Shown here: piece by piece, positions 943 through 33,865 of the stretch
Position numbering within the stretch: the stretch's first letter is position 1
Layout: every line of letters begins with the position of its first letter
Origin: a virus
Strand: one strand, 5' to 3'
Length of the DNA stretch: 33,865 nucleotides
Virus record (IMG/VR): IMGVR_UViG_3300025706_000015
The notes under the pieces: generated by a model
What the model saw: the letters and a program-made list of their open reading frames with translations, nothing else
What the model was told of the DNA's origin: nothing
Databases searched by the model: none
Translations under genes and position numbers: made by a program

Positions 943-1914
943 TTAGTAACTTGCTACGTCGTTCACAAGCACTGCGGTAATTGCCTTACCTGTTGCAGTA
1001 CTAAACTCGCCAGATATACCCATAGTTTGTTCAACAATGCCGTCTAGGTCGTTGCTGGTGTCCCAGTCGCTAACGCGCGCCTGTTCAAGCGTAAACTCTA
1101 GGCTAGGGCTAACTGCTGGCGTACCAAAGGTTACGTCTGTGTTCTTAATTCCAAACAACATTGCCTTACTGGTGTTATTAAAGTACATATCCTCGTAACT
1201 GCTGTCGCTGTGGCGGGCTACAACTTCGCCCGTAATTTCAACGGCCATAGCGTGTATTTCTGCTGGGTCTGTGTTGCCTAGTTCAAAGTAAGCGTCTACG
1301 CCCATGTCCATGCTAATTTTAGCGCTTTTAACTGCGCTTGGTGTAGCTGCTGCAAGGCCTGCTACTGCGGTTGCAAACTTAACGTATGCGTGTTTGCTGG
1401 TAAACTCGTACTCGGTTACGTAGGCTACAGTGTTTGCAGTGTCTATGCCCTTTTTACTCATAATGTCGCAACTAAACTTAACGTACTCGCCTGCCTCTAC
1501 GGTAATTTCCATGCTTTTAATCATGGCAAGCGCGTGGCGGCGGTCAGTGTTGCCGTCTTTGCGGCTAAGTGTAAGGCTTTGTGGTGTATTGCTTTGGTTA
1601 ATGGTGTAGGTGTGTGTCCATGCGCCAGTACCGTTGGCTGCGCTGCTTACCGTACCAAATGCGCCTAGCAAAATAAGGCCAATACTCTTGTGGTTTACTT
1701 TACCCTCAAGTTTGCCCTCTGCCCATACCTTAGTAATTTCACTGTCGCTAACTTTTTCACGTACGCCTAGTGCGCTTTCGTTTTGTGCAAGTTCGCCCTT
1801 GCGCTTAAAGTCTAGGCTAAGGTGTCTAACCCAATAAGTCGCCACAACTGCTGTGCCGCGTACTGTTTCTTTACCAATTCCTACCGCAACTTTGCGGCCA
1901 ATGTAGTCGCCCAT
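943..1914 (-). CDS. Major tail (tube) protein
   Basis: 323-aa ORF directly upstream of the chaperone pair and tape measure, matching siphovirus gene order. Confidence 0.7.
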   Translation of the reverse strand: MGDYIGRKVAVGIGKETVRGTAVVATYWVRHLSLDFKRKGELAQNESALGVREKVSDSEITKVWAEGKLEGKVNHKSIGLILLGAFGTVSSAANGTGAWTHTYTINQSNTPQSLTLSRKDGNTDRRHALAMIKSMEITVEAGEYVKFSCDIMSKKGIDTANTVAYVTEYEFTSKHAYVKFATAVAGLAAATPSAVKSAKISMDMGVDAYFELGNTDPAEIHAMAVEITGEVVARHSDSSYEDMYFNNTSKAMLFGIKNTDVTFGTPAVSPSLEFTLEQARVSDWDTSNDLDGIVEQTMGISGEFSTATGKAITAVLVNDVASY

Positions 1915-2096
1915 TATTTTGTACCCTCATTATCTGCCGCTTTTTTGCGTTCGGCTAGTTCTTTTTCTATAACTTCCGTTGCTTGTTCTTGGCTGTCGGC
2001 CTCAACACTCTTACCCAAATCAGGGCTAAAGTACTTAACCTTTTCCGCTACTAGCGGTTTGCTATCTTTTTCGGGTGTTTCTGCGTTCTTAACCAT
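1914..2096 (-). CDS. Hypothetical Lys/Glu-rich small protein
   Basis: 60-aa ORF whose stop overlaps the start of the major tail gene. Confidence 0.55.
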   Translation of the reverse strand: MVKNAETPEKDSKPLVAEKVKYFSPDLGKSVEADSQEQATEVIEKELAERKKAADNEGTK

Positions 2097-2158
2097 ATAC
2101 CTTTATCCTACTATCATATTATTACATTTACAATATCATGGCCATAGTAAATAGTTGC

Positions 2159-2638
2159 CTATTCCCCTAAGCCCTCTACGTCGTGGCTATACCTAATGCC
2201 TACTGTGGCCATAATGCTAAGTATATTGCCCGCGTCAGTTTCTAGTATTTCCCAACCTGCCTGGGCTGGCTTTGTAATAACCGTAAATGGCTGGTTGTTT
2301 TCGTCTTTAGGTTGCAATGCGTCTAGCGCGTCAATTACTAGGTCGTTAAAGTCGTATGCCAAATCAAAGGCTGCGGCCTCGGCCTGGTTAGCAGTTTCGC
2401 CCTCTGCTACCTGTTCATACTTAAAGTAGCTAATAATTAAAAACTCTGGCGTACGTTCGTTCTGTTTGTTCGTGCTAACCTCGTTTGGCTGGCCGTTCAG
2501 TACCACGCGGGCTGCTGGGTAGGTTTCAAATGTTACGCGGGTATCGCTAACAACCTGGCCGTATGCCGTTTCGTCGCCGTACTGTAGCCCAGTTAGTAAC
2601 GCTACAATACTGTTCTTAATCTGTTTTACTTTACCCAT
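2159..2638 (-). CDS. Neck/tail-completion protein (tail terminator position)
   Basis: 159-aa ORF between the gp10-like gene and the major tail gene. Function is inferred from position only. Confidence 0.55.
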   Translation of the reverse strand: MGKVKQIKNSIVALLTGLQYGDETAYGQVVSDTRVTFETYPAARVVLNGQPNEVSTNKQNERTPEFLIISYFKYEQVAEGETANQAEAAAFDLAYDFNDLVIDALDALQPKDENNQPFTVITKPAQAGWEILETDAGNILSIMATVGIRYSHDVEGLGE

Positions 2639-2642
2639 AATT

Positions 2643-3125
2643 CTATTTTAGCCCCGCTATAGTTTTTGCAACTACCTGGTTACTCATTGCCATTACTGCT
2701 GGTTTCATTTTAGCATAGCTTTTTGCTGCAAACTTACTACCCTTAGTACCTTTACGGCTAATGCTGCGCGCTACCAAAAACGGGCTAACGTCTGCGCCCA
2801 TTTTGTCGCGTACCCACTTTTCTAATGGTGTGCCTTTCTGGTAGGGTGGTAGCTTGCCGTTTGGCTTGCGGCCGTACTCTACTGGTATGGCGTACTTTTT
2901 ATCGCTAAAAATAACTACCGTATCTGCGCTTTGCCATTTAGGCCGTATGCTTGCCCGTAGTTCGCCGTCATGTACTGGTGCGTTAAGCCTCATTTCGGCC
3001 TGGGTCATAATGCTGCCCCTGTCCAGTATTTCTTTTTTGGCTGCGGCCACGCTTTTAGCGCCCATTTGCAGTAGGCGTTTAACGTTCTCGCTGTCAATCT
3101 GTATGCCTACGCCTGCGCTTGCCAT
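2643..3125 (-). CDS. HK97 gp10-like head-tail joining protein
   Basis: 160 aa. The N-terminal pattern ...AKKEILDRGSIMTQAEMRLNAPVHDGELRASIRPK resembles the HK97-gp10 family. Confidence 0.6.
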   Translation of the reverse strand: MASAGVGIQIDSENVKRLLQMGAKSVAAAKKEILDRGSIMTQAEMRLNAPVHDGELRASIRPKWQSADTVVIFSDKKYAIPVEYGRKPNGKLPPYQKGTPLEKWVRDKMGADVSPFLVARSISRKGTKGSKFAAKSYAKMKPAVMAMSNQVVAKTIAGLK

Positions 3126-3126
3126 A

Positions 3127-3441
3127 TTACACCCTTAAATTAGCCTCACACTGTATATGCTTAGTAAATATGCCTGGCTGCACTCGTACGCCGCCAATCG
3201 TAAATACTCGGCCGCTTTGGTCGGTTACAACGTCCCCAGTTTTAAGGCCTGCGCTAACATCTGCAAACAAGTCATACGCCTGGCTAAGTTCCATGCCCCG
3301 CTGCGCTGCGCTTTGTGGGCTGCTGGCCAATATCAAGCAAGGCACTGCGGTTTTAATCTCGCTAGCGCCCGTTTTATGGCTGTTCGCAATCTTGCCCGTA
3401 CGCTTTACGCTAATGCGGTCTGTAAGCGTGTTAGCCCTCAT
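3127..3441 (-). CDS. Head closure / head-tail adaptor protein
   Basis: 104-aa ORF translationally coupled between the connector and the gp10-like gene. Confidence 0.55.
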   Translation of the reverse strand: MRANTLTDRISVKRTGKIANSHKTGASEIKTAVPCLILASSPQSAAQRGMELSQAYDLFADVSAGLKTGDVVTDQSGRVFTIGGVRVQPGIFTKHIQCEANLRV

Positions 3442-4014
3442 TTAGCCCACCTTTGGCGGCGTGTATTTAGCAATAACGTTATCAAATACGCCAGTGTCCG
3501 TAAACTCAATACGGTAACTGCCTGTGCTTTCACTTTTAACCCTGCGGCTGTCCTGCCCGCCAGTGCCGCTAAGTTGGTCTGCTGCAAACTGTAATGCTGC
3601 TAGCTTAAGGTCTGCTGGCATTGTTTCGCCCTCTGCGTGGCCGTATACGTAGGTAACGTGTACGGCGTTGTACGCGCTGCGGTTGTAATCGTCGCCGTAA
3701 CTAAAGTCAAGCGTAAGGCGGCCTGTATTGCTGTCGTACGTGTAACTTTTGGTGTCTATCGGGTCTGTTTCGTCCTCTGTGCCGCGCTGGTAAAGGCGTA
3801 CCTCGGTAATGCTTTTAATGCCCATACGGCCTAGCATTACATTGTCGCGGTAGTCCAGTATTTCGCTGCGTGTCTTATCGCTGCCGTAGTTGTAAAGGGT
3901 TTTGTCCTCTACGTACTGGTTAGTAGCGTCCACAAATAACTGTAGCCGCGTATCTTGGCTAGTGTCCCCTGGGGCAATTCCCAGGTATGCTTTTAGGTCT
4001 GCTAGTGTAATCAT
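3442..4014 (-). CDS. Head-tail connector (gp6-like)
   Basis: The N-terminus MITLADLKAYLGI...D..L..Fv.aa is typical of gp6-like connector/DNA-packaging proteins. It is the first gene after the capsid terminators. Confidence 0.65.
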   Translation of the reverse strand: MITLADLKAYLGIAPGDTSQDTRLQLFVDATNQYVEDKTLYNYGSDKTRSEILDYRDNVMLGRMGIKSITEVRLYQRGTEDETDPIDTKSYTYDSNTGRLTLDFSYGDDYNRSAYNAVHVTYVYGHAEGETMPADLKLAALQFAADQLSGTGGQDSRRVKSESTGSYRIEFTDTGVFDNVIAKYTPPKVG

Positions 4015-4042
4015 TTTTAAATAGTTCCTATGGCTTTATTGT

Positions 4043-4073
4043 AAAACAAAACCCCACTAAATAGTAGCGGGGT
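4043..4073 (-). terminator. Rho-independent terminator
   Basis: Sense ACCCCGC-TACTATTTA-GTGGGGT followed by TTTGTTTT, downstream of 4095..4676. Confidence 0.6.
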
Positions 4074-4094
4074 AATTGCATTGCAATAGTTTAC

Positions 4095-4676
4095 CTATTT
4101 TTTAGCGGCTGGCTTTGCTTTGTCGCTGCCCTCTGCTGGTTCGTCTGTGTCGTTTTCCAGTTCAGTAGCGGCCTCGGTTTCGTCGTCGCTTTCGTCGCCT
4201 GTTTCCTCAACGTCGCCTGCGCCTGCTTGGCGGTTAGCCTCGTTTGTAACGTCCTCAACTGGCGTACCCTCTGTGCCTGCGTCCTCGTCAGTAAGTGCGT
4301 CGCCCTCGTCAATTTGGCTAGGGTTGTCGCCCTCTTGGCCGTCTACGGTTTCGCCCTGGGCTTGCTTGTTAGCGTTTTCAATCAACTTATCTGCGGCGGT
4401 TTGTTCGTCGTCGCCCTTAAGTACTATACCCTCGTCGTCGTTTTTAACGTTACTGGTTACGCGGCCACCCTTTTTAAGGCTTTCCTCGCGGGCTTGGTCT
4501 GCAAGGCTAGCTGTGTCGCTGGTGTTGCTAACTTTCTTAGCGCCCTTTGCGTAAGGCTTTTCAATATCGTTAGTTTTTGCGTAAGCGTCTACTCGCTTAA
4601 GTTCTGCTGCGTCAAGGTCTACAACGTCGCCTTTTACGTAGTGGTCAATGTTCTCGTTAAACGTTACTAATGTCAT
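4095..4676 (-). CDS. Hypothetical highly acidic protein (possible head decoration/accessory)
   Basis: 193-aa ORF with a globular N-terminal ~50 aa followed by a D/E/T/G-rich low-complexity tail. It lies between two terminators after the capsid gene. Confidence 0.7.
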   Translation of the reverse strand: MTLVTFNENIDHYVKGDVVDLDAAELKRVDAYAKTNDIEKPYAKGAKKVSNTSDTASLADQAREESLKKGGRVTSNVKNDDEGIVLKGDDEQTAADKLIENANKQAQGETVDGQEGDNPSQIDEGDALTDEDAGTEGTPVEDVTNEANRQAGAGDVEETGDESDDETEAATELENDTDEPAEGSDKAKPAAKK

Positions 4677-4750
4677 AGCTTTGCTACTCCCTTTACATTG
4701 TTTTTAGTTACTTTTCAATAATAGCATATACGTTGTTCTATTTTCAGTAT

Positions 4751-4778
4751 AGCAAAAACGGGGCTGTTACGCCCCGTT
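4751..4778 (-). terminator. Rho-independent terminator after the major capsid gene
   Basis: Sense AACGGGGC-GTAACA-GCCCCGTT followed by TTTGC: an 8-bp GC-rich stem. Confidence 0.75.
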
Positions 4779-4799
4779 CATGTTTGGCTAGCCGTTAGG

Positions 4800-5897
4800 C
4801 TATTTTACGCCTGTAAGCTTGGCAAATGCCTCTGGTAGTACAACTGCGCCGTCTGTGTAGTGAATAACACGTACGCTAGTTTTACTTCGCTTAAAGTCGT
4901 CGCCCTCTGTACCAAAGTCTACACGAATACCGCCGCCGTCAGTAATAACGTACTTGCTGTAGTCGCCGTACCATACTTCGGTTTCGTTCGTACCCGCGCC
5001 CAGGTTAGTTGGGATATTTGGGTCGTAAGCTACTGGTCGGCCTTTAATCTTGTCAGTGTCGCCGTCAAAGTTGTTAAGCAATGGGCGGTTCTGGCTGTCT
5101 TTAAGTCCGTCAAGCAAGCCACCAACGCTGTCGGCTGCAAAAAACGTACCGTTAGCGCGGTATGCACGTGGCAATGCGCGGTAAAGGTTCATTACGTCGC
5201 CGTAAGCAAAGGCTGCGCCTGCTTGGGCTTTAACGTTTGCGCCTGGCAATGTTGCTGTGCGGTAGCCCTTTGGCTTACCTACGCCGTCGCCGTTTGTAAA
5301 GGCTGCGTCCTCAAGTACCTGAATAGCGTAAGCAAACTGGTCTACAACCATTTTACGAATATCAGGGTTGCTAACTGTTTGTGTAAGTACTTCGTCAGTA
5401 AACTTACCAAAGCCAACTGCCTTTTTAGGCTGCAACGTAACGGTTGCCCATTGTGCTGCGCTAAGGGTTGCTGTGTCGCCCTCGGCTACCCAGTAAGCTT
5501 GTACAAGCGCGTCCTCTGCGCCTAGCTTAATCTGGCCAACAACGTTATTAAGCACTGTAGCGTACTTACGTATTTCGCTAGTAGCGTTCAGTTTCTTAAT
5601 AATGGTGCTTTCAACGGTAAGAGGTACTAACCAACCACCCTCGTTAGCGGTTACTGTGTCCTGGCCTGTAAGGTCGGCTGCTTTGCGGCTTTCCACAATT
5701 TCTTTTTCTACTGCGTCAAGTTCGCTAGCGTTCTTAGCTGCAAATGCCTTAAACCATTTTGTTTCAAGGTCTGCTGCGGCTTTCTTAGCTTGTGGGTTTT
5801 TACCACCCTCTGCGCCTGCTGGCACAAAGCCTTTTGCTTTTGCTGCGCGGGCTTGTTCAACTGCCTCTGCAACAATTTCACTCATTTTCTTTTTCAC
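4800..5897 (-). CDS. Major capsid protein, HK97 fold
   Basis: 365 aa with an N-terminal delta-like coiled region, then typical HK97-family sequence (..GGWLVP.., ..KPKGY.., ..VWYGDYSKYVI..). It follows the prohead protease. Confidence 0.9.
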   Translation of the reverse strand: MKKKMSEIVAEAVEQARAAKAKGFVPAGAEGGKNPQAKKAAADLETKWFKAFAAKNASELDAVEKEIVESRKAADLTGQDTVTANEGGWLVPLTVESTIIKKLNATSEIRKYATVLNNVVGQIKLGAEDALVQAYWVAEGDTATLSAAQWATVTLQPKKAVGFGKFTDEVLTQTVSNPDIRKMVVDQFAYAIQVLEDAAFTNGDGVGKPKGYRTATLPGANVKAQAGAAFAYGDVMNLYRALPRAYRANGTFFAADSVGGLLDGLKDSQNRPLLNNFDGDTDKIKGRPVAYDPNIPTNLGAGTNETEVWYGDYSKYVITDGGGIRVDFGTEGDDFKRSKTSVRVIHYTDGAVVLPEAFAKLTGVK

Positions 5898-5930
5898 AAT
5901 GTTACCCTCGTAAAAATTATTAACTAACTA

Positions 5931-6887
5931 TTATTGTTCGTTGTCTTTATCGTCGCCGCCGTCCGTATCGTCTGCAAGGGCTGCTGCCACTGCGTCCGCT
6001 ACCTGTTGCGCCTGTTCCTCGTTAAGGTCGTCTACATCTACCTCTGCGTCGTCGCCCTCGTCCGTTCCAGTCGGTTTCTTACCGTCCTTACCGTCCGCGC
6101 CGTCGTCGTTTTGGTCGTCGTCGTCGCCCTTACCGTCCTCATCATCGCCTGCGTCGTCGCCGTCGCCTGCGTCTTGCAATGTTGCTACCTCTGTTTTAAT
6201 GTCCTCTACTGCCCCAACAAGTCCTGCGTTTTCCTCGCCGTCCCCGTTAATGGTAGTTTCTAGGCTAGCTAGCTTATCGTTAATAGGTTTAAGCGCGTCG
6301 GTAATAAATTGTTGCAGTTGTTCCATATTCTCTAAATTATCATTGTCCTTAAGGTTACGCAAGCCCTCTAGTTCCTTTTCGTAAGCTTTTACCAAAAAGG
6401 CTACGTCCTTTTTCGCAATCAGGCCGTCTTTGGCGGCAAGCACAATGGCGTTAGGGTTTGCTGGTACGGGTACAATGCTAATTTCTAGCAGTTCGTTTTT
6501 GGTCAGTACAATGTTGTCTTGTTCCTGGTTGTCCAGGTACTCTTTGTTAATAAAGCCAACGCTAACCGTATTAAGTATGCCTGCCTTTACCATGTTCCAA
6601 ATGGTCATTGCTTTGTCGTACATTTCGGCGGCAAATTGAATAGTGGCTAGGGTCTTGCCGTCCTCTACGCTAATGTCAATCGTTTTACCAATCGGCAAGT
6701 CGTAGCTATCGTGGCCAAACAAAACTACTGGGTTGTTTAGGTAGTTCTTAAAGTCCCAACCGTCCTGCTGTATAACTTCGCCCTGGCGGTCTACGCTTTC
6801 GTCGCTAATAATAAAGGTCGCCGTATAGTTCTTTTCGTCTATACTGTTCGCCTTTGTCTTAAAAAACTTTGTTAGGTTCTTTTTCAT
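5931..6887 (-). CDS. Prohead protease (HK97/S78 family) with scaffold-like coiled coil and poly-acidic C-terminus
   Basis: N-terminal ..FIISDESVDRQGEVI...NPVVLFGHD...PIGK..EISIVPVPANPNA matches prohead protease motifs. The C-terminal ~100 aa are a D/G-rich acidic tail. Confidence 0.85.
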   Translation of the reverse strand: MKKNLTKFFKTKANSIDEKNYTATFIISDESVDRQGEVIQQDGWDFKNYLNNPVVLFGHDSYDLPIGKTIDISVEDGKTLATIQFAAEMYDKAMTIWNMVKAGILNTVSVGFINKEYLDNQEQDNIVLTKNELLEISIVPVPANPNAIVLAAKDGLIAKKDVAFLVKAYEKELEGLRNLKDNDNLENMEQLQQFITDALKPINDKLASLETTINGDGEENAGLVGAVEDIKTEVATLQDAGDGDDAGDDEDGKGDDDDQNDDGADGKDGKKPTGTDEGDDAEVDVDDLNEEQAQQVADAVAAALADDTDGGDDKDNEQ

Positions 6888-6923
6888 AATTCTATTCTAT
6901 ACCCTCGCTATAATTTTATACTA

Positions 6924-7478
6924 TCATACGCTGCTTAAAATCGGTATTAGTACGCAACGGCAACTGCTGTGTAGCGGTGCGCCTTTAATGCCGTCGTAAT
7001 CAAACTTAAGCGTACTGGTCTTTTCCTCGCCACTGTTCGCCGTATATGTAACGTCCAGGGTGTCGCCTTTGTTAAAAAAGTTGCTGCTAACTTTCTCTAC
7101 TGTGCCGTCCATGTGGGCGCAATACCTGCATACGCGTTCGTCGCGGGCTGTATACCAACGTTTCTCAACTACTACGCCGCTTTGCTGCCAGGCCTGTATG
7201 TCTGCGTACGTCTGGGCGCGGGCGCTTTCTGTACGTGCTATATTATCTGCCCTGCGGGTACTAGCATAGCCTAGCACTTGTTCAACGCGGGCGCGCAACT
7301 CGTAGTTAGTTTCGTTGGCTGCAATGCCGTCTGCTAGCGTTAGGCGTAGCTGCTTTTCAGTTTCCGCGTTTACGTCGCCGCCTACCTTGTTCGCCTTTTC
7401 AATAAACCATTTCTGTATGGTCGCCTTGTACGGGTCAAATGCTGGTACGTTCGCGCCGTTAAATGCTAACTCGGCCAT
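6924..7478 (-). CDS. MuF-like / SPP1 gp7-like head morphogenesis protein (ATG-defined C-terminal part)
   Basis: ..RTESARAQTYADIQAW...WYTARDERVCRYCAHMDG...HSSCRCVLIP matches the MuF minor head domain. The frame stays open upstream to 7814 with no ATG, GTG or TTG. Confidence 0.8.
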   Translation of the reverse strand: MAELAFNGANVPAFDPYKATIQKWFIEKANKVGGDVNAETEKQLRLTLADGIAANETNYELRARVEQVLGYASTRRADNIARTESARAQTYADIQAWQQSGVVVEKRWYTARDERVCRYCAHMDGTVEKVSSNFFNKGDTLDVTYTANSGEEKTSTLKFDYDGIKGAPLHSSCRCVLIPILSSV

Positions 7479-7814
7479 TGCGCTGTAGCCCGTACTCGTA
7501 ATGATATTAAAGTAAAGCGGCTGTAATGCCTTACTTAATTGTTCGGCGTACTCGTCAAAGTTGGCAAAACCAAATAACTTGCTAGGGTCTACGTCTTTAC
7601 GCTTAAGCGCCTTTTGTACTCGCTGCGTGTCCAGTTCTGCTAATAAGGCCTGTTTCTGCTGTTCAAATATGGCGCGGGCTTTAGCAATAAACTGCTGTTC
7701 AAATGCTGCGCCGCGTTCAATGTAGGCCTTGTGCTTGGCCTCGCCGTATTCCTCTAGCCAATCGGCGGGTACGTTAGTTTTTTTTTTGCGCCTGTGGCGC
7801 TGCTTGGCAAACTC
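7479..7814 (-). other. Start-less in-frame upstream extension of the MuF-like ORF
   Basis: 112 sense codons (EFAKQRHRRKKKTNVPADWLEEYGEAKHKAYIERG...) with no canonical start. They are in the -1 frame relative to the portal and overlap its last 20 codons. Confidence 0.6.
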
Positions 7815-9049: not shown

Positions 9050-9053
9050 TTGT

Positions 9054-25351: not shown

Positions 25352-25391
25352 AACTTGCGTTATTCCTTTCCTTAGTTATTGCCTTACAACA

Positions 25392-26237: not shown

Positions 26238-26241
26238 AGCA

Positions 26242-26487
26242 TTAGCCTCGCCTCTTAAAGTAGTCGCGTATATCCTCTGGGCTTAGTCCAATCACAATAC
26301 CCATAAGTATACCTAAAACCCATACTGGGTAATCAAATGTAGGTATAGTAGCGTCAAATACAAACAACGTTATAGCGCCTACCAAACAAACCACCCTAAA
26401 AAAGGTAGTTGCTGCCTTTGGTTCGGGCTGTTTACGTACTGGTTGTTTTGGTATACGTTTTACGTCAGTTTTTCTTTTGGCCACCAT
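26242..26487 (-). CDS. Small membrane protein (2 TM)
   Basis: 81 aa: a basic N-terminus followed by two hydrophobic segments. Confidence 0.7.
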   Translation of the reverse strand: MVAKRKTDVKRIPKQPVRKQPEPKAATTFFRVVCLVGAITLFVFDATIPTFDYPVWVLGILMGIVIGLSPEDIRDYFKRRG

Positions 26488-26593
26488 GTGTAATGTCTTT
26501 CAGTCTAAAATCAAGCTTATGTATAGCGCCGCGTAGTAGCCAACCTGCCACTATGCCAAACTCAATGCCTAGTATAAACTCCATTATTTCCAT
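26465..26593 (-). CDS. Possible 42-aa membrane peptide (not in the ORF track)
   Basis: MEIMEFILGIEFGIVAGWLLRGAIHKLDFRLKDITHGGQKKN. AAAGGAA lies upstream. It overlaps the next gene by 23 nt. Confidence 0.35.
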   Translation of the reverse strand: MEIMEFILGIEFGIVAGWLLRGAIHKLDFRLKDITHGGQKKN

Positions 26594-26658
26594 AATTCCT
26601 TTTGTTGCGCCGCTATAGCTTTCTACATTACTTATGTTAGCATATTCCCTATTTAAGC

Positions 26659-27006
26659 TTAACCCTCTTGTTCAATACTTGCTGCGTTATATTTCACAAG
26701 TTCTGTACGCGCCTCGTCGGGCAAATAATTGCCACAAATAAAGCAACGGTAAGGGTCTACGTTATCCACCATGCCGCAATACTGGCAATTACTACAATTA
26801 GGGCAAGTAGTAAACCATTGCCCGCCTGCTGTCGCGCCACACCATACACACTTATTTACGGCGCAAACCTTGTGCTGCGCGTCCATAAGCTTTGCCTCAA
26901 ACTCTGGCTGCTTTTCTGGGTTAATAACCTTTTCCCTGCGCTTGCGGCCAGGGTTCGGGGCAATTACCGTATTCCCTGGGTAGTATATACTAAGTCCATT
27001 TTCCAT
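26659..27006 (-). CDS. Cys-rich (multi zinc-ribbon-like) protein
   Basis: 115 aa with 13 Cys arranged as CxxxxC, CxxC, CxxCxxCxxC and CxxC. Confidence 0.7.
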   Translation of the reverse strand: MENGLSIYYPGNTVIAPNPGRKRREKVINPEKQPEFEAKLMDAQHKVCAVNKCVWCGATAGGQWFTTCPNCSNCQYCGMVDNVDPYRCFICGNYLPDEARTELVKYNAASIEQEG

Positions 27007-27422
27007 ATTTCTATTGTAGCAATCTGGCTTAAATATGTTGGGTGCAAAATGCCTATGCCCACAAAGCCCTGGGCTGCTAGGCTAGCGTCATTTATAATTA
27101 ACTGTTTAATAATCTGTGTCAGGTCGGCCGTAAAATCTATGCGGCGGTTTGCGTCTGCGGTCAGGTTAAGCGGTTTCATTAGCGGCTGGTTAAAGTCGTC
27201 CGTACTAAATTGCCTTGTACCTATACCTATAATTTTCTGGTTGCCTACTGGTTCGCTGGCATGAAAAACAATACGTATATGCGCCCATAGGTTTTTAATC
27301 TCTAGTAGGTTACTTGGCAAGTTAAAGTTAAGCGTTGCGCCTGCGCCACAATCGCGGGCGTTTTGCAGTGCAATGGTTTTGTACTGGTATCTGTATTCCT
27401 GGTGTCTACTTTCTGCGCCCAT
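26964..27422 (-). CDS. Hypothetical structural protein
   Basis: 152-aa ORF in the distal tail cluster. Confidence 0.75.
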   Translation of the reverse strand: MGAESRHQEYRYQYKTIALQNARDCGAGATLNFNLPSNLLEIKNLWAHIRIVFHASEPVGNQKIIGIGTRQFSTDDFNQPLMKPLNLTADANRRIDFTADLTQIIKQLIINDASLAAQGFVGIGILHPTYLSQIATIEIWKMDLVYTTQGIR

Positions 27423-27423
27423 A

Positions 27424-27954
27424 TTAAAGCCTTTCGTCGTAATCGTAGTCTACGGTTTTAAGTACCTGGGCTGTCTGTGCGCGGCCACGTATCATACGCC
27501 CCGTAGCTTTCAAGTCAATAATTACCAAAAAAATGCCGTTCCAACGCGGGTCTGTAGGCTGCGGTATTTGCAGTTCGTTAAACTCTAGTTCAAATGGTAG
27601 TGTTTGCCCCGCTGGTATGGTTATGCGGGTAAGTTCATTTGCGGCCGTAATGTTCAACGGGTCGCTGGCGTAGCTAAGTACAACGTCGTAAGGTTGGCTA
27701 GCGCCCTCGCTGTTAGGGCAAATACCGTCGTTTCCTGCGTTCAAATAGCTTTTAAAGTCAATGTTTTGTAATACTAGGCGGCGGTTTCGTACTACAAAGT
27801 TAGTAGCAAAAATACGCCACCATAGGTATGTAAAGTTAGCTGGTAAATAACAAGCGCCTGCGCCGCTGCCGCCACACCCAGGGCTAAAACTAAAGTCGCT
27901 ACCACGTACTAGGTTCTTTGGGTAGCCCATTACCTCTATATCTTGCGCGCCCAT
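27424..27954 (-). CDS. Hypothetical structural protein
   Basis: 176-aa ORF, translationally coupled. Confidence 0.75.
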   Translation of the reverse strand: MGAQDIEVMGYPKNLVRGSDFSFSPGCGGSGAGACYLPANFTYLWWRIFATNFVVRNRRLVLQNIDFKSYLNAGNDGICPNSEGASQPYDVVLSYASDPLNITAANELTRITIPAGQTLPFELEFNELQIPQPTDPRWNGIFLVIIDLKATGRMIRGRAQTAQVLKTVDYDYDERL

Positions 27955-28646
27955 TATGCTACCCCCGTCATACTTTGCACTACCCTAAAAAACTCAAAAG
28001 CAAAGTTGCTGCCGCCAAATGCGCCTGGTATACCTGCGCCACTTGGGGCAAATAATATAGTGCCGTCTGTGCTGCCAAACGCCAGTATTAAGTTAAACCC
28101 GTCCTCAACAAATAGCGGGTTGCCGTTCTTTTTCAGTTGCGGTAATAGGTTTATGCGTCGCGCAATAATACGCCAGTCGCCACCGCCGCTACTCATGGCA
28201 ATAGGCGTACGTGTGCCGCTAATCTTTTCCCAACTGTCCTGTATTTCTTTTAATGTGTAGCTGGTTCGCGGTGTCGTAAAGTCATTGTTCGTAAAGTCGC
28301 CAATCGCAATATACATACCCAGGCCGCCTTTTTCTGTAGTACCGCCCGTCGTACCGTCAATAGCGCTGCGTATCTGTAAATAGTCAATATAGCACTCTAC
28401 TAACTCGCCCTGGTGTGGCTGCAATATGCGTATGCTGTTAATTGCCTGCGGGGTAGGTGTAACCGCGCCGCCCACGCCGTCTATTGTACTAATGCCAACA
28501 AGCGGGCATAAGTCGCTATACCCGCCGCTAATTGTGTACGCCCCCTTTTTAAGGTCGTACTCGGTTTCGTCCATGTAGTTGTGGCCAAAAACATTAGCCC
28601 TCATGGTTACGGCCTCGTTGCGTACCGCGCGGTCAAGTCCGCCCAT
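27954..28646 (-). CDS. Hypothetical structural protein
   Basis: 230-aa ORF whose start overlaps the upstream stop. Confidence 0.75.
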   Translation of the reverse strand: MGGLDRAVRNEAVTMRANVFGHNYMDETEYDLKKGAYTISGGYSDLCPLVGISTIDGVGGAVTPTPQAINSIRILQPHQGELVECYIDYLQIRSAIDGTTGGTTEKGGLGMYIAIGDFTNNDFTTPRTSYTLKEIQDSWEKISGTRTPIAMSSGGGDWRIIARRINLLPQLKKNGNPLFVEDGFNLILAFGSTDGTILFAPSGAGIPGAFGGSNFAFEFFRVVQSMTGVA

Positions 28647-28647
28647 T

Positions 28648-29172
28648 TTACGTACCTATAGCTATCCAGTTGTAGTAGCCAAAGCCGTTACCACCCCAGT
28701 TAGTACCGTTCGGCTTAGCAAAATAAACTTGAAAACCTGTGGTAGTAATGCTGTGTACCTTGCTTACTACAATACCCTCAATAGTGTTACCACCGCCGTT
28801 AGCTGTATTGCTTAGGCTGTCGCCGCTGTATTGTGCTAATACAATCGGCTTGCTAGTAAATGCCCCGTTAAACGTAATTCCCTCACCGTAAATAGACTGG
28901 CCAGTACTTACAGGTATAACGCCCCAACCTGTCAAAATGCGGGCTGCGGTTTCCGTACTGTTCGTAGTGTCGTCTTGTCGCAACGTCTTATAGTTGCTAA
29001 TCTTATCGCCAGTTACGGCGTTTGCTGCTAAGTGGCGGTTAATAATTACCGCGTCCTCAAGCCCAGTACCTAAGTTAAAACTACTGTCGTTACTACCAAT
29101 TAAGTTCCATTTTGCCGTTGTAGGCTGTTCGTTCGCTACAAACGTAATAGCTGTATATCCGCTACTGGCCAT
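28648..29172 (-). CDS. Receptor-binding / tail fibre protein with H-type-lectin-like C-terminal domain (putative)
   Basis: ..ITFNGAFTSKPIVLAQ....VHSITTTGFQVYF....NWIAIG resembles the H-type lectin pattern. Confidence 0.55.
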   Translation of the reverse strand: MASSGYTAITFVANEQPTTAKWNLIGSNDSSFNLGTGLEDAVIINRHLAANAVTGDKISNYKTLRQDDTTNSTETAARILTGWGVIPVSTGQSIYGEGITFNGAFTSKPIVLAQYSGDSLSNTANGGGNTIEGIVVSKVHSITTTGFQVYFAKPNGTNWGGNGFGYYNWIAIGT

Positions 29173-29173
29173 A

Positions 29174-29761
29174 CTACTTTACCCTTTCCAGTTTAAATGT
29201 TTCGTAGCGTTCCATAGTTCCCTGGGTTTCGTAGTCCGCTTTTTCGCCTTTGGCTTGGTTCTCTGCAATGCGCGCTGCTGCCTGGGCTACCTCGTATGGT
29301 GTACCCATACTTACTGCGCCAGTGTCGCCTATAATATCCTTGCCGTCTTTAATAATGCCGCGTATAGGCACAATACCCATTTCAACCGCTGCAAGCGTGG
29401 TGCGGTTGCCACAAGCACACTCATAGCCGTACATAGGTTCGTTATTCTCGTTTAAGTCCTCGCGTCGCCTAATCGCTAGGCAAAGGTCGTTATAGTTGTA
29501 AAAGGTGCGGCCTTTCTCAAGTACCACGCCGTCTGCAAACTGCCCTGCTACCTCAATACCTATAACATGGTCATTAGCTAAACAATGCAGTACGTAAACC
29601 TCTGGGTAGTTGGCCTTATACCAATCTACCATTTTTTGTACCTCGGCCTCGTCCTGTTCCCAACTTACGGGTTCTGGTTCGGCCATTTCAACAGGCACAA
29701 TAGCCATTTCGGCTTGTGTGTCGTCAATCTCTTGTTTATCGTCTTTGGCTTTTTTCATCAT
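29174..29761 (-). CDS. Hypothetical protein
   Basis: 195-aa ORF with an acidic N-terminus. Confidence 0.75.
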   Translation of the reverse strand: MMKKAKDDKQEIDDTQAEMAIVPVEMAEPEPVSWEQDEAEVQKMVDWYKANYPEVYVLHCLANDHVIGIEVAGQFADGVVLEKGRTFYNYNDLCLAIRRREDLNENNEPMYGYECACGNRTTLAAVEMGIVPIRGIIKDGKDIIGDTGAVSMGTPYEVAQAAARIAENQAKGEKADYETQGTMERYETFKLERVK

Positions 29762-29801
29762 TACAATAATTTCCTATACCTTTAATATACAATACAACAG
29801 T

Positions 29802-31385
29802 CTATGGCGCTAGGTAGTCGCTGCCGCCAATTCTACTTACACCAATCGTAAAGTACTGGTAAGTGCTGCGTTGTTCAAGGCTTAATGTCTGCGCTAGCTT
29901 ACCATTTTGCGTTACCTCTATATCGTTACCAACTACAACCATTGCTAAGGTTTGCCCCGTCGTTTCCTCGTTTACGGTTACAAAGTCGCCTAATTGTAGC
30001 TGCGGCACACCAAATACCGTTGCCTTAAGGCGCTGCAATGGCGTACTAAATAGCTTTACATAAATGTATGCCAGGGCGTTTGCCGTAGCCGCGTCTTGTA
30101 CTAGGTTATTGTCAATGGTTACAATCTGGCCGTTGTTATCTGGGTTAATTCCGTAGTTGGCTATGCTGGTCGCGTCCGTCTGTTCTTTGCTGTCCACCAC
30201 TTGCACTTTGGCTGGCGTACCATATAGCTGTATCTTGGTCAGGTAAATTACCGCGTTCGTAGTATTTGCAAACGTCATGCGGTAGCGTTCACCAAATAAG
30301 TAGGTGCTGGTAAGCGCTATGCCGCTGTTTACCTCTGCGCCTGTGCCGTCCTGGTTCTGGTTGGCCTGCCAACTACTCGTAACGGCCGTCGTAATGTTTA
30401 CTGGCGTTACTATACTAATTAAAGGAAAACTACCTATGTCGTCCCTAAAATCTGCAAATACATCTAGGCTGCTGTTTGGCTGTACTGCGTAGCTTTGCCC
30501 GTTTTCCCAAACCTTGTTAAAGGCGGCAATCTTAAATGGCTTTGCCACTACTATTGCGTCGTTCACTATAGGCGTATTGTCCCAGTCTACGTTAGTCATA
30601 TTGCTATAGTTAAACGTCCACTTGCTAGTACTGTTATTGTTTAAGTGTATTCTGTTCCAAAAGTTAATTACGCCGTTTTCGTCGCAAAACATTAGCGCGC
30701 CCTCGGCCTCGCAAATCTGCTTAAAAATGTCCGTTACAATCAAGTCTTGTACGGGTAGGTAGCCAATTTTATTTTGGGTGCTTGGTTCAATGTTGTACTG
30801 GCCTACGCCAAAGCCCTGTTCTTGCAGTAGCGCAATAATAATTTGGTCTGCACTGGTATTTACAAAGGCCTGCAAACTACTCTTTTTATTACTCAAAAAC
30901 TTAAGCGCGTCCCATGCTACAATGGTTGTCTTGCGGCTGCTAATGCTACTCTTAGGCATTTCGCTATAGCCCGTAAACAAGTTAATGTACTCATCGTTAA
31001 TACCCACACCCAGGCGTATAGGGCGGTCAGGCAAAATATAGTTGCCAATCGTAGCGTCATACTTAGGCGTAAAACGGTTATTTGCGTTCAGTAAGGTAAT
31101 GTTTGCCGTACCCATAATAACGCCCCAGGGTAGGTTACTCATTTTGCGGCTAATAGTATAGCTTTCTACGTTAGCGGTTTCGTTAGTGTACTGGTATTTG
31201 TCGCTAAACGTTACGCTGCCGCCTGCGCCCTTAAGTACGTCTGCGCCACCAATCTTACTTTGTCCAATGGTAAAAAACTGTACGCTGGCATTAGTCGTTT
31301 TTTGCCAGGCAATCAAAACACTAGCCCCAATACGTTTGTAGGCTGCTGCGGTTGCGGTAGTAAATGCGCTACTAACCGTTTGCAT
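29802..31385 (-). CDS. Tail tip / baseplate hub protein (Tal position)
   Basis: 527-aa ORF, the second gene after the tape measure. Function is inferred from position only. Confidence 0.7.
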   Translation of the reverse strand: MQTVSSAFTTATAAAYKRIGASVLIAWQKTTNASVQFFTIGQSKIGGADVLKGAGGSVTFSDKYQYTNETANVESYTISRKMSNLPWGVIMGTANITLLNANNRFTPKYDATIGNYILPDRPIRLGVGINDEYINLFTGYSEMPKSSISSRKTTIVAWDALKFLSNKKSSLQAFVNTSADQIIIALLQEQGFGVGQYNIEPSTQNKIGYLPVQDLIVTDIFKQICEAEGALMFCDENGVINFWNRIHLNNNSTSKWTFNYSNMTNVDWDNTPIVNDAIVVAKPFKIAAFNKVWENGQSYAVQPNSSLDVFADFRDDIGSFPLISIVTPVNITTAVTSSWQANQNQDGTGAEVNSGIALTSTYLFGERYRMTFANTTNAVIYLTKIQLYGTPAKVQVVDSKEQTDATSIANYGINPDNNGQIVTIDNNLVQDAATANALAYIYVKLFSTPLQRLKATVFGVPQLQLGDFVTVNEETTGQTLAMVVVGNDIEVTQNGKLAQTLSLEQRSTYQYFTIGVSRIGGSDYLAP

Positions 31386-31387
31386 TG

Positions 31388-31741
31388 CTATATTTCCTCA
31401 ATCACACAATTAGCGTCTACTAATTTGCTAGTACCTACGCTGTACGGTGTGCTTGCATTAAAAGTAGGTAGCCCCGTAAAGTTAAACGTTCCGCCTGGTT
31501 TGTTCGTAAAATCGTTAGCATAGGCCACTGCTGCGCCCGTATTAAGTAATGCTAACAATGCCTGGTAATCGGCAATGCTTAAGCGCGTCCATTTTAGCTG
31601 GGCGCGTTTCTTTTGTCCTGCGCGGGTGCGCTGCTTGCCGCCGTTAATTGCTACAAGCGTAGTTTCGTAGTTTACGTAGTCCTCAACAAGCCCGTCTGCG
31701 TCAGGTAGTTTAATTGCTGTTGCGTTAATCGTTAGTGCCAT
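31388..31741 (-). CDS. Minor tail protein (distal tail protein position)
   Basis: 117-aa ORF immediately after the tape measure stop. Confidence 0.7.
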   Translation of the reverse strand: MALTINATAIKLPDADGLVEDYVNYETTLVAINGGKQRTRAGQKKRAQLKWTRLSIADYQALLALLNTGAAVAYANDFTNKPGGTFNFTGLPTFNASTPYSVGTSKLVDANCVIEEI

Positions 31742-31744
31742 AGT

Positions 31745-33865
31745 TTACCCTCTTAAAGCCCCTATTTGTGTCATGTCCAGGCCTTGCGCCCGTAGTGCGT
31801 CGCGTATCTGCTTTGCCATGTCTACTGCGTCGCCCTGGGTAAACTGGCCGCGCCCCTCGTATTTAATCGTAAGGTTAAAGTCGCCGCCGCCGTTACCGCC
31901 TGGTGCGTTCGCTAGCATACTCTGGGTGTTTCGGTTGCTAACAACCTCTGCGCCCGCTGGTAGCCAAACGTTTTCTTTACCGTTCTCGCCCACCGTAGCC
32001 CAACCGCCCTGCGTTACCTGGCCACCTGTATACAATCGTGGCAATGTTCCTAGCTGCGGTACGCCTGGTAGCTTGCCCGCCGTATTGTTAATGCCGCGTA
32101 TAAAGTCGTTAATCTTGTCAATAACCCAGTTCAAGGCGCTTTTAATTCCGTTTGTAATGCCGTCAAATACGCCGCTTACGCCGTTCCTAATGCCGTTGGC
32201 AATGTTGCTAATAAAGCCGCTAATGCGTCCCCACATACCAGAGAAAAAGCCAACTACGCCGTCAATGGCTGCGCCAAAGGCGTTACGTATGTTATTTATA
32301 ATCGGGCTAATAAAGCCCCATATTGCACTAAACACGCTTACCGCTACATTGCGTACGTTATTAAATACGTTGCCAATAAAGTTGCCTACGGTCTGTATGC
32401 CGCTGCCTATCGCGTCAAATATCGGGCTAATTTTCGCCCAAATTGCGTCCCATACCACTATTACAATGCCGCGTATAACGGCAAACACGTAGCTAAATAT
32501 ACTCATAATTATATTTATGCCTGTACTAACCACGTTAAACCAGAATTGAAAATACCCTACCAAAAAGTTAATTACTGGCTGGGCTACTGCCATTACCGCG
32601 TTAAATGCGCCCGTAAGCACTGTGCCAATCAGGTTGGCCACCCAGGTAATCGCGCCCACAATTCCCTGCCATGCGCTAATCATAAAGTTTACATACCCTG
32701 TAAATACCTGTATCAGTACGTTAATCACGTTCACAAGTAGCCATACCGCCCCAACTACTACGCCGCCAATAATTGCGCCAATCACTTGTAGCGCTGGCAA
32801 TAGCACTGGGCTTAAAAAGTTCCATAGTCGCTGCAACGTCGGTAATAGGTTTGTGGTTATGGTATTCCAAAGCGCCTCAAAGCTAGGCCGCAAAAACTCA
32901 ATGGCCTTTTTAACTACGTCTATGCCCGTTGCAAGTGCGCCCTTTAAAAAGTTGCCCACGTTCGTTAGCACTGGCTGTATAGCTTTCATTACGTTACCCC
33001 AACCGCCCATGCTTTCTACAAGCTTTTGTATTCCTAGTGCCACAAGTGCGCCTGCTGCCATAAATGGTAGCAATGGTGCTAATGTTGCCCAAACGCTTGC
33101 CGCAAGGCTAGCAAAGGCTGGTACAAGCGCGCCCAGTATCACGCCTGCAATAACGGGTGCGTTGTCGCCTATCCACTTAAACATTGTCTGTATGCCCGCT
33201 ACAATGCTGTCTTTGTTCGCGCTTATCCAGTCGCCTACGCTTTTCATAGCGTTTTTAATAATTTCAAACATACCGCTTTTAGTTACAATATCTGCCATTG
33301 CAATAGTTACGGTGTCCTGTAGGTTCGCCCAAATCTGGTTAAACCCGCCTGCCTGGTTAGCAAATGCGTCTGCAAAACGGCCGCCCGCTGCGCCCGCCTG
33401 GTTAAACATTTGTTCAAGCATACTAAACGTTACGCCGCCGCCGCTAATAAAGTCCTCTAGCGCCTGCCCTGTCTTGCCCGTTGCCTGGCTTAACATCTCA
33501 AAAATAGGTATACCTGCAAAGGCAAACTGGCGTACGTCCATCATGGTTGCCCGCCCAGTCGCGCCAATCTGCTGCAAGTTCACAATAATGCGGTCTAGTT
33601 CAGGTTGTCCTTTGCCCATTGCCGTAAGTGCTTTACCTACGTTCATAAGTAGGTTTTCACTCTGGCCTGCATTTTTCGTAACGCTGGTAAGTAACTGGTT
33701 GGCCGCAATCAGGCCTGGTAGTTCAAATGGTGTGTTAGCTGCGTCGCGCTTAATCATTGCTATAGCGTCGTCCGCTGCCTTTGCGCTGCCCAATAGCGTA
33801 ATAAACCCTGCGCGGCTAGCCTCAAGGTCGCCTGCTATCTTTGCGCCTGCGCCAACAAAAGTAGC
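31745..33865 (-). CDS. Tape measure protein (main part; N-terminus continues at 271..128 across the circular junction)
   Basis: ..AMIKRDAANTPFELPGLIAANQLL...MDVRQFAFAGIPIFEML.. is a tape-measure core. A long run of hydrophobic G/A/V/I repeats follows. There is no stop between 33793 and the window end. Confidence 0.9.
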   Translation of the reverse strand, partial: ATFVGAGAKIAGDLEASRAGFITLLGSAKAADDAIAMIKRDAANTPFELPGLIAANQLLTSVTKNAGQSENLLMNVGKALTAMGKGQPELDRIIVNLQQIGATGRATMMDVRQFAFAGIPIFEMLSQATGKTGQALEDFISGGGVTFSMLEQMFNQAGAAGGRFADAFANQAGGFNQIWANLQDTVTIAMADIVTKSGMFEIIKNAMKSVGDWISANKDSIVAGIQTMFKWIGDNAPVIAGVILGALVPAFASLAASVWATLAPLLPFMAAGALVALGIQKLVESMGGWGNVMKAIQPVLTNVGNFLKGALATGIDVVKKAIEFLRPSFEALWNTITTNLLPTLQRLWNFLSPVLLPALQVIGAIIGGVVVGAVWLLVNVINVLIQVFTGYVNFMISAWQGIVGAITWVANLIGTVLTGAFNAVMAVAQPVINFLVGYFQFWFNVVSTGINIIMSIFSYVFAVIRGIVIVVWDAIWAKISPIFDAIGSGIQTVGNFIGNVFNNVRNVAVSVFSAIWGFISPIINNIRNAFGAAIDGVVGFFSGMWGRISGFISNIANGIRNGVSGVFDGITNGIKSALNWVIDKINDFIRGINNTAGKLPGVPQLGTLPRLYTGGQVTQGGWATVGENGKENVWLPAGAEVVSNRNTQSMLANAPGGNGGGDFNLTIKYEGRGQFTQGDAVDMAKQIRDALRAQGLDMTQIGALRG
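33739..33865. repeat. Terminal direct repeat copy 2 (identical to 1..127)
   Basis: Exact 127-nt duplicate of the window start. Confidence 0.95.

Follow-up and report, generated by a model that had tools for sequence, protein, structure and literature searches.

The virus record IMGVR_UViG_3300025706_000015 of IMG/VR (33,865 nt; the whole of this stretch is called the window below) is a phage genome with every gene on the minus strand, and its sense strand has lost almost all of its TC dinucleotides. The 38 sites that survive raise the question of why these were tolerated, and in particular whether their flanks, which are rich in T and A, record what is recognised by the agent that penalises TC, as proposed in an initial annotation of the sequence, or are a shadow of the genetic code, of base composition or of recent mutation. 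Comparison of the window with related phages indicates that the flanks are a real condition for tolerance, and that the agent is probably an enzyme acting on the sense strand while it is single-stranded.

Loss of TC from the sense strand

An exhaustive count of the plus strand gave exactly 38 GA and 1,964 TC dinucleotides. In the sense orientation the observed/expected ratio of TC is 0.02, even along the genome, while TT is in excess (1.65) and CC is undepleted (0.90; on average 3.55 CC per 80 nt); purines make up 57.5% of this strand. The ratio for sense TC is 0.03-0.05 in five further lineages with 70-83% nucleotide identity, namely L001, L055 (= L002-L004), L005, L052 and L053, and the TC ban is thus a property of a clade. 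The next relatives, L006, L007 and L012, have a terminase that is 46% identical and are binned with Saccharibacteria; they were counted as one sister lineage because they are 91-94% identical to each other, and their TC depletion is mild (0.62-0.66). Unrelated phages range from 0.73 to 1.4, and the other contigs of the bin containing L005 have ordinary TC (0.8-1.05). Several negative controls were used, one of them (L065) from genome G263; no conclusion hangs on L065.

The loss extends to all codon phases (a raised dot marks a codon boundary below). C-ending codons are favoured where TC is not involved, GAC, AAC, TAC and CAC accounting for 71-83% of their pairs, whereas TTT:TTC is 372:6, ATT:ATC is 410:2, GTC occurs once and CTC never, which gives a third-position C fraction of 0.00-0.02 for NTY codons against 0.71-0.83 for NAY. 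Serine is written with 494 AGY codons and 9 TCN codons (TCN, 2%), and the codon junction T·C stands at 0.04 of expectation. Since all three phases are reduced 25-50-fold, the cause of TC loss takes no account of the reading frame. The ban is also nearly restricted to one strand: the message retains 1,964 GA (observed/expected 0.71) and shows no avoidance of NGA codons. The junction G·A is mildly low (0.55-0.67; odds ratio (OR) of 0.3 for K/E/Q codons), which is poor evidence for an agent acting on two strands, as NGA codons are unavoided and some unrelated phages share this junction bias; such an agent was rejected. Without GA, no TGA stop is possible on the plus strand, and the long open reading frames (ORFs; up to 414 aa) found there are therefore artefacts.

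The ban reaches the protein sequence. Phe is encoded by TTT and TTC only, so that TC is unavoidable in the dipeptides Phe-His, Phe-Gln and Phe-Pro. Together they occur 8 times in the window against 34.4 expected, and 2 against 21.6, 2 against 9.2 and 0 against 7.6 in relatives; they are depleted 4-10-fold in the window and in the relatives with the TC ban, and not significantly depleted in the sister lineage. This depletion reveals selection against TC as such, even where the protein sequence pays for it. A plain C>T mutation bias would be unable to erase Phe-Gln, because TTT-CAA would turn into a stop codon.

Some other origins of the pattern were rejected. A sequencing or assembly artefact, or hypermutation, is contradicted by intact ORFs with strong Pfam matches, a serine content kept normal through AGY codons, and the presence of the ban in independent assemblies. 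Avoidance of ultraviolet photoproducts would not fit the excess of TT, would protect the wrong strand for transcription and would not leave T-rich flanks tolerated. The window also lacks CCGG (0 against 108 expected over its whole length), a case of ordinary restriction-site avoidance; the TC ban has, as a by-product, also eliminated GATC and TCGA.

Flanking context of the surviving sites

The number of survivors and the tallies of the initial annotation were reproduced exactly: the dinucleotide is followed to give TCA 20, TCT 13, TCC 3 and TCG 2 times, and its upstream contexts are TTTTC at 15 sites (ten of them TTTTCA), ATTC at 8 (seven TATTC) and [AG]TATC at 6. All of the positions, which had been listed as approximate, exist; ten deviate by 1 nt, and one by 9 nt (5630 for 5621). 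As claimed, the survivors fall in every codon phase (TCN 9, NTC 9, NNT·C 17), and three lie outside called ORFs.

These contexts depart strongly from what flanking composition would give. From the contexts of all T, 1.2 TTTTC would be expected (P=2.5e-13), and 1.3 if all of the survivors had come from TT>TC changes (P=1e-12); the contexts of all T would likewise give 1.3 TATTC where 7 are seen and 1.4 [AG]TATC where 6 are seen. G is nearly excluded at positions -1 and -2, and A or T follows at 33 of the 38 survivors, which departs from the background of C contexts (chi-square P=1e-4). The combined pattern WWW-TC-W (W, A or T) is found at 24 of the 38 sites, with 3.6 expected (P=7e-16). It recurs in the five other lineages at 41 of 63 sites, with 6.7 expected (P=5e-25); these 63 sites include 19 TTTTC and 11 TATTC and are followed by A in 30 cases, T in 24, C in 5 and G in 4. 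The window and the other lineages have similar ratios of survival to opportunity (TTT-TC, 0.31 and 0.30; ATA-TC, 0.22 and 0.16; TAT-TC, 0.13 and 0.14), while for 41-52 of the 64 upstream triplets not a single survivor was seen. By the +1 base, relative survival is 1.5 for A, 2.1 for T, 0.4 for C and 0.2 for G, and at each of the positions -3, -2, -1 and +1 protection falls in the order T > A > C > G. The effect is local, with composition back at background beyond about -4 and +3.

The survivors might be recent mutations not yet purged, in which case the context would show where TC arises, for instance by T>C in T runs, and not where it is tolerated. The transience of most sites, with 41 of about 55 alignable TC columns specific to one lineage, is in line with this. 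However, a TTT upstream is expected for only 3.5% of fresh TT>TC changes and for at most 3.7% with any donor dinucleotide (TT, TA, TG, CC, AC or GC), against 39% observed; a T>C origin at NNT·C junctions would be non-synonymous; and the same contexts with equal survival ratios are met in independent lineages. An origin of the context in mutation is thus very unlikely.

The genetic code deserves more attention, since a T before C could come mostly from Phe and Ile codons, making the bias a by-product of code and base composition. Eight of the 15 TTTTC sites are indeed Phe-His, Phe-Gln or Phe-Pro junctions at which the code forces TC, and most of the other survivors involve Phe or Ile codons. 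The initial reading of the flanks needs correction to this extent, as 8 of the 38 sites, making up about half of the TTTTC sites, exist only because the code leaves no choice. The decisive evidence is provided by the synonymous base at -3, the third base of the preceding codon. At forced sites this base is T in 11 of 11 cases (3.2 expected), and over all NNT·C survivors in 27 of 36 (7.8 expected). Where TTT precedes C, T stands at -3 in 11 of 11 cases, against 16% for TTT without a following C (P=3e-9); where ATT precedes C, it does so in 12 of 12, against 34% for ATT without a following C (P=3e-6). The rule holds separately in the window and in the other lineages, and covers 23 of 23 junctions overall. 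Across the six lineages, T[AT]TTC occurs 52 times against 241 expected and V[AT]TTC (V, any base but T) twice against 505 expected, a gap of about 54-fold caused by one base. Nulls based on composition fail at least 10-fold. Because of these synonymous-flank tests, the T/A flanks must be regarded as a real condition for TC tolerance and not as the shadow of Phe and Ile codons, and a pure by-product of the code is highly improbable.

The sister lineage, which still carries hundreds of TC, provides a further test. Its use of NTC or NTT varies with the base at -2 (OR of A/T versus G/C, 2.4-3.8; P 1e-8 to 5e-11), whereas its control codons N[AG]Y show no such dependence (OR 1.0-1.2), nor does the choice between NTC and NTT in five of six unrelated phages. 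This restriction of the effect to NTY codons also speaks against a by-product of the code. In addition, TTT or ATT standing before C is more often preceded by a third-position T in the sister lineage (OR 2.85, P=0.005), but not in six control sets. On the simplest reading, the sister lineage experiences the same agent at lower intensity. The proposal that TC is tolerated in T/A flanks followed by A or T, and that the flanks are a footprint of the agent, is thereby supported by every control run, including the composition nulls, the synonymous-flank tests and the five further lineages.

Conservation of survivors and the capsid gene

Few survivors are kept at orthologous positions: the sites at 8201 (6 of 6 lineages), 4862 (4 of 4), 10186 (3 of 4), 14889 (2 of 2) and 7503 (4 of 6) are conserved, while 41 of the approximately 55 alignable columns occur in a single lineage each. 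Survivors are thus mostly transient, which mutation-selection balance would predict. At 8201 the C plausibly averts a run of nine T; no T run longer than 7 was found in any lineage.

Such conservation at about 70% nucleotide identity, at 8201, 4862 and 10186, and the occurrence of survivors in pairs might suggest that T/A-flanked TC is positively selected as a functional signal, TTTTCA being for example a processing or regulatory site. Against this, even the best context remains depleted 3-5-fold, as the counts for T[AT]TTC given above illustrate, most sites are unconserved, and the fully conserved site at 8201 is explained by avoidance of a T9 run. Positive selection for signals is accordingly quite unlikely.

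The initial annotation had also claimed an enrichment in the major capsid gene. The excess exists, with six sites where 1.23 are expected (nominal P=0.0017), but is weak statistically (P=0.03 after permutation over 66 genes; P=0.16 with a 1.1-kb sliding window), and the capsid genes of relatives contain 4 (1.2 expected), 4 (1.7) and 1 (1.3) TC. The outcome that would have spoken against the annotation, survivors distributed as flanking composition predicts and no capsid excess, was not seen. However, the excess is attributable to the choice of Ile codons and not to the motif of the agent. Before a codon starting with C, Ile is written ATT or ATC five times and ATA once in the capsid gene, and ATT twice and ATA 91 times elsewhere (P=1.7e-6). 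ATA accounts for 1 of 13 Ile codons in the capsid gene of the window against 36% elsewhere, and over four lineages for 20% of capsid Ile codons against 39% elsewhere (P=0.003). The capsid excess is explained by this avoidance of ATA; in the most heavily expressed gene, TC in the tolerated context T-ATT-C would be a lesser evil than ATA. The poor quality of ATA is suggested by the capsid genes themselves, and ATA is common in the candidate host bin G001. Thus the flanks of the survivors are worth more, and the capsid gene less, than had been claimed.

Surviving sense-strand TC sites and other features of the window (a raised dot marks a codon boundary; ncRNA, non-coding RNA)
Position	Strand	Feature or context	Remarks
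1..33865	-	Source, IMG/VR virus record IMGVR_UViG_3300025706_000015	All genes on - strand
4800..5897	-	Major capsid gene	6 TC, 5 at Ile codons (ATT·C x4, ATC x1)
14097-14696	-	199-aa early protein	D...E-x-K motif; predicted PD-(D/E)XK (restriction-endonuclease-like) fold
16216-16674	-	SprT-like metalloprotease domain protein	Among early genes
18740-20548	-	Recombination module	RecE/Cas4-like PD-(D/E)XK exonuclease, 139-aa ORF, Rad52-like annealase
1013..1014	-	TCT Ser, tail tube gene	Context ATA-TC-T; this lineage only
4862..4863	-	GTT-ATT·CAC, capsid gene	Kept in 4/4 lineages
4925..4926	-	GGT-ATT·CGT, capsid gene	
5013..5014	-	ATC Ile, capsid gene	Context ATA-TC-C
5321..5322	-	GCT-ATT·CAG, capsid gene	Common to L005
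5357..5358	-	GAT-ATT·CGT, capsid gene	
5621..5622	-	CCT·CTT, capsid gene	Minor CC-TC-T class; first listed as 5630
6638..6639	-	ACT-ATT·CAA, prohead protease gene	
7503..7504	-	AATA-TC-A, start-less upstream part of MuF frame	Outside called ORFs; also in L053, L005, L052
8201..8202	-	TTT-TTC-TTT, portal gene	Kept in 6/6 lineages; C breaks would-be T9 run
8555..8556	-	GTC Val, portal gene	Atypical context; this lineage only
9372..9373	-	ATC Ile, large terminase gene	Context ATA-TC-A
10004..10005	-	GGT-ATT·CAC, large terminase gene	Common to L052
10186..10187	-	TTT-TCA (Phe-Ser), large terminase gene	Kept in 3/4 lineages
10221..10222	-	ATT-TTC, large terminase gene	Common to L052
10968..10969	-	AAT·CAA	Common to L055
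13098..13099	-	GTT-TTT·CCT, Phe-Pro	Code-forced; T at -3
13106..13107	-	TCT Ser	Context GCC-TC-T; 8 nt from 13098 site
13457..13458	-	GTT-TTT·CAT, Phe-His	Code-forced; T at -3
14889..14890	-	TGT-TTT·CAG, Phe-Gln	Code-forced; common to L055
16714..16715	-	TCA Ser	Context ATA-TC-A
21643..21647	-	TTT-TCA-TCT (Phe-Ser-Ser)	Two TC sites, 3 nt apart
21832..21833	-	TCA Ser	Codon 4 of small early ORF
22310..22311	-	GAT-TTT·CAA	Doubtful small ORF or ncRNA region
22433..22434	-	TTTT-TC-TTT, non-coding	In terminator T-run
22471..22472	-	GCC-TC-T, non-coding	
22910..22911	-	TTT-TTC (Phe-Phe)	
23541..23542	-	CTA-TTC	ncRNA candidate or doubtful ORF
23603..23604	-	AAT·CAT	Same ncRNA candidate or doubtful ORF region as 23541
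27263..27264	-	GTT-TTT·CAT, Phe-His	Code-forced; T at -3
28731..28732	-	GGT-TTT·CAA, Phe-Gln	Code-forced; T at -3
28895..28896	-	TCT Ser	Atypical context CAG-TC-T
30425..30426	-	AGT-TTT·CCT, Phe-Pro	Code-forced; T at -3
32241..32244	-	TTT-TTC-TCT, tape measure gene	Two overlapping TC sites
32543..32549	-	TAT-TTT·CAA-TTC, tape measure gene	One TC forced; second is one of the clade's only two V[AT]TTC

Genome organisation and host

The two ends of the window (1-127 and 33739-33865) are identical over 127 bp, which indicates that the record is a complete, circularly assembled genome, of siphovirus type, with about 33.7 kb of unique sequence; the tape measure gene spans the junction of the ends. 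The 65-66 ORFs, every one on the minus strand, encode the tape measure and tail proteins, a LysM endolysin, about 40 small early proteins, the terminase, portal and MuF proteins, a prohead protease, an HK97-type capsid protein and a tail tube protein. The early genes include those of a Rad52-like annealase, a RecE/Cas4-like exonuclease, a SprT-like protein and a PD-(D/E)XK-fold protein. The exonuclease, 85% identical in L055, is the best conserved of the early proteins. No replicase was recognised. Each of the six lineages has exactly one run of ten A at the portal/MuF junction (about 7777-7814), other A runs being no longer than 7, which fits the idea of a programmed slip put forward in the initial annotation.

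No counterpart of this genome was found in the INPHARED phage collection. The clade extends beyond the lineages compared here: one early gene forms at least 25 protein clusters (at 90% identity), found on contigs 31.6-34.3 kb long in Logan, ENA and NCBI. Since close and distant terminase relatives lie on contigs binned with genomes of Saccharimonadales/Saccharibacteria and other candidate phyla (L005 itself comes from a Saccharimonadales bin), these bacteria probably include the host, as judged from binning.

A second Saccharimonadales bin, G118, contains an unrelated phage contig, G118:C8 (L062+L063, 28.4 kb), which has all genes on one strand and a reduced TC content (observed/expected 0.39; junction T·C, 0.46). 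In the chromosomal contigs of this bin (L064, L067-L076), the third-position C fraction of NTC codons is 0.06-0.21 against 0.43-0.49 for NAY, NTC codons being used 3-4-fold less than NAC and NGC codons, and the junction T·C stands at a near-normal 0.80, as would be typical of a C>T mutation bias. A mutational action of the phage-shaping agent on the host was considered and rejected, since the flank dependence is the reverse of the phage rule, NTC being scarcest where the flanks are T or A. Because of this opposition, the under-use of NTC in G118 was treated as a separate phenomenon, and it gives no support for a deaminase.

Nature of the penalising agent

The penalty is confined to one strand, blind to frame and uniform over a genome transcribed one way; it removes a dipeptide from proteins and reads about five flanking bases. 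It is also old, as lineages at 70% identity have it in common. From these properties, together with its strength, we infer an enzyme that acts on the sense strand in single-stranded form. The survivors are probably what remains after a very strong penalty on sense TC, shaped by three factors. The code forces TC where Phe precedes His, Gln or Pro (8 of 38); counter-selection would keep ATT·C in the capsid gene, where ATA is disfavoured, and one TTC that breaks a T9 run; and the penalty itself depends on about five neighbouring bases. Such an enzyme would read roughly positions -3 to +1 around TC on the sense strand while it is single-stranded, tolerating the dinucleotide with T at -3, T or A at -2 and -1 and A or T at +1, and almost fully removing it if any of these is G or C. 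Each hit would be costly in any codon phase, and the phage would have discarded the target even where this changed a protein.

The substrate may be mRNA, attacked by a UC-directed endoribonuclease or an RNA-modifying enzyme; this is the most economical choice, because it gives total strand asymmetry for free, and we lean towards it without much confidence. Somewhat less likely is the displaced non-template DNA strand as the substrate of a TC-specific cytosine deaminase or similar enzyme. It is conceivable, with a probability just short of even, that cells of the Saccharimonadales group (candidate phyla radiation) hold a previously undescribed activity on TC/UC in exposed single strands, either an APOBEC-like deaminase or a dinucleotide-specific RNA-targeting enzyme, which needs a base other than T at -3 and prefers G or C at -2, -1 and +1, and that this activity drove the whole phage clade to recode its genome, proteins included, towards a TC-free message.

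Several points weigh against a sense-strand enzyme that reads these flanks. Ten of the 38 sites break the T/A-flank rule (e.g. GCC-TC-T and CAG-TC-T), so that the rule, though strong, has exceptions. Survivors and controls have equal predicted unpaired probabilities (0.371 vs 0.378), which also led to the rejection of shielding by RNA structure. The survivors are paired, with four gaps of no more than 10 nt against 0.44 expected (P=0.0007), which the model does not predict; the close pairs are 13098/13106, 21643/21646, 32241/32243, 32543/32548 and 22433/22471. The host assignment depends on metagenome bins, and the sample comprises six lineages while at least 25 further clusters exist. As the whole genome is transcribed in one direction, no gene shows whether the ban flips with transcription. 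In a comparison of gene orientations in the sister lineage, minus-strand ORFs were mostly antisense artefacts; the one with a Pfam match was ambiguous and the depletion there was mild. The near-identical contigs L002-L004 and L055 showed only five differences, too few for a polymorphism spectrum.

The flanks could also reflect shielding, if a protein preferring T/U-rich single strands, such as a single-stranded DNA-binding protein (SSB) on DNA or an S1-like protein on RNA, covered these TC sites. SSB prefers oligo-dT, and the order T > A > C > G seen throughout -3 to +1 would suit it; the phage, with its Rad52-like annealase and RecE/Cas4-like exonuclease, must handle single-stranded DNA. However, T is needed at -3 in an all-or-none manner whereas A is accepted at -2, which looks more like a binding pocket than affinity for T tracts, and shielding is unlikely.

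Alternatively, the agent may be encoded by the phage, as a UC/TC-specific nuclease directed against the host to which the phage transcripts are immune because they lack the target. A uniform and old ban, present in lineages at 70% identity, suits an ever-present selective agent, and the influenza protein PA-X, described as a shut-off RNase with a cleavage motif that leaves viral mRNAs intact (bioRxiv 10.1101/2022.07.08.499385), would be a precedent. A search among the early proteins for the agent (Pfam, PHROGs, PADLOC, ESM Atlas and one fold search) returned only the recombination module, the SprT-like protease and the PD-(D/E)XK protein. The last, which belongs to a family of 26 matches, all at least 65% identical and confined to this clade, plus two distant phage matches at 34%, is the sole candidate and a weak one: its fold matches are poor (PvuII, DpnI and Hjc; Foldseek E of 1e-3 or worse), and a junction resolvase fits equally. 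In addition, the sister lineage and the unrelated phage G118:C8 show graded bans, which point to the host group, and a phage-encoded agent is rather unlikely. SprT-family enzymes remove DNA-protein crosslinks; a tie between the SprT-like protein and the TC ban is speculation.

Whatever its identity, the flank rule serves as a specification of the oligonucleotides the agent should attack (G/C-flanked TC) and spare (TTTTCA, TATTCA), and makes biochemical or metagenomic searches for it possible. The weaker rule in the sister lineage suggests that the pressure is tied to a poorly known host group with few described phage-host mechanisms.

Comparison with known systems

Motif avoidance is a known route to reading the enemies of a virus from its sequence, and the flank preferences of several agents can be compared with those of the survivors. 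DarT of the Thermus type recognises TNTC; 22 of the 38 survivors have T at -2 and match this motif, which is thus enriched rather than removed, and DarT was rejected. DarT (PF14487) had no match in the bins G001, G118 and G170, in a search whose control matched nothing anywhere. The motif of T4 endonuclease IV is TCA in single-stranded DNA, and an agent of this type was likewise rejected, TCA being the commonest survivor (20 of 38). Avoidance of a CRISPR protospacer adjacent motif such as TTC was rejected as well, since TTC is the best-tolerated trinucleotide (23 of 38) and the ban affects one strand only.

TC is the classic specificity of polynucleotide cytosine deaminases, among which APOBEC3A/B favour contexts like TTCA and TTCT. 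The phage survivors sit in just these contexts, so that the flank preferences of APOBEC3A/B, like those of DarT and T4 endonuclease IV, misfit. The footprint of APOBEC3 in human viruses, a depletion of TC and NTC (Poulain et al. 2020, PMC7449416), concerns the same dinucleotide, may be confined to one strand (adenovirus E1A/E4, coronaviruses), exchanges NTC for NTT and has been interpreted as the answer of these viruses to an enzyme that attacks single-stranded nucleic acid. The under-representation of TC with an excess of TT expected from an APOBEC-type agent is seen in the window (0.02 and 1.65), but a stronger depletion of NTC than of TCN and NNT·CNN is not, all three phases being alike. 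In human viruses the effect is mild and strongest in NTC, whereas in the phage NTC, TCN and NNT·C are all reduced 25-50-fold and a dipeptide is lost, and because of this the TC motif itself must be selected against. The DddA-like family PF14428 had no match in the same three bins, which are incomplete, and the control search matched no genome either; one ORF with a generic CDA fold was found in G001.

The CmdTAC defence system, whose effector CmdT attaches ADP-ribose to the adenine of GA dinucleotides in single-stranded RNA (PMC11618068), shows that bacterial antiviral effectors can act on mRNA at a plain dinucleotide. However, CmdT targets GA in the message, while the phage retains sense GA, leaves NGA codons unavoided and bans UC, and CmdT itself was rejected. 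Recoding cannot rid a message of GA, which is part of the Asp and Glu codons, but it can rid a message of UC, and such an escape is therefore possible.

The purine-rich sense strand recalls the escape of purine-rich genes from Rho, the primary site of which binds YC dinucleotides on nascent RNA (PMC13323073). Avoidance of Rho-dependent termination would similarly reduce pyrimidine-C words on the nascent RNA in a strand-specific and frame-blind way. The phage, however, bans TC alone and over the whole genome, with CC normal; its survivors cluster in T-rich tracts, which would favour Rho (PMC13323073); and the depletion of dipeptides argues for harm at each site, not for harm by density. Moreover, the Rho RNA-binding domain (PF07497) passed the cut-off in none of 201 Saccharimonadales genomes, representing the order of G001, and in 9 of 9 bacterial controls, which largely refutes this explanation if the host is a member of the Saccharimonadales. 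It is the least probable of those considered.

Restriction-site avoidance, which the window also practises at CCGG, concerns words of 4-8 bp, usually palindromic, on both strands, unlike a ban on a 2-nt word on one strand. Animal RNA viruses avoid CpG because of ZAP, and UA/UU because of RNase L. In these viruses recoding removes a dinucleotide that a host sensor or nuclease recognises in single-stranded RNA, much as proposed for the phage, and flanks modulate recognition; their depletion is 2-5-fold, in eukaryotic hosts, without near-complete exclusion or recoding at the protein level. Literature searches returned no description of a ban like the present one, and a near-complete exclusion of a dinucleotide from one strand that reaches the protein sequence goes well beyond the cases found in phages and animal viruses.

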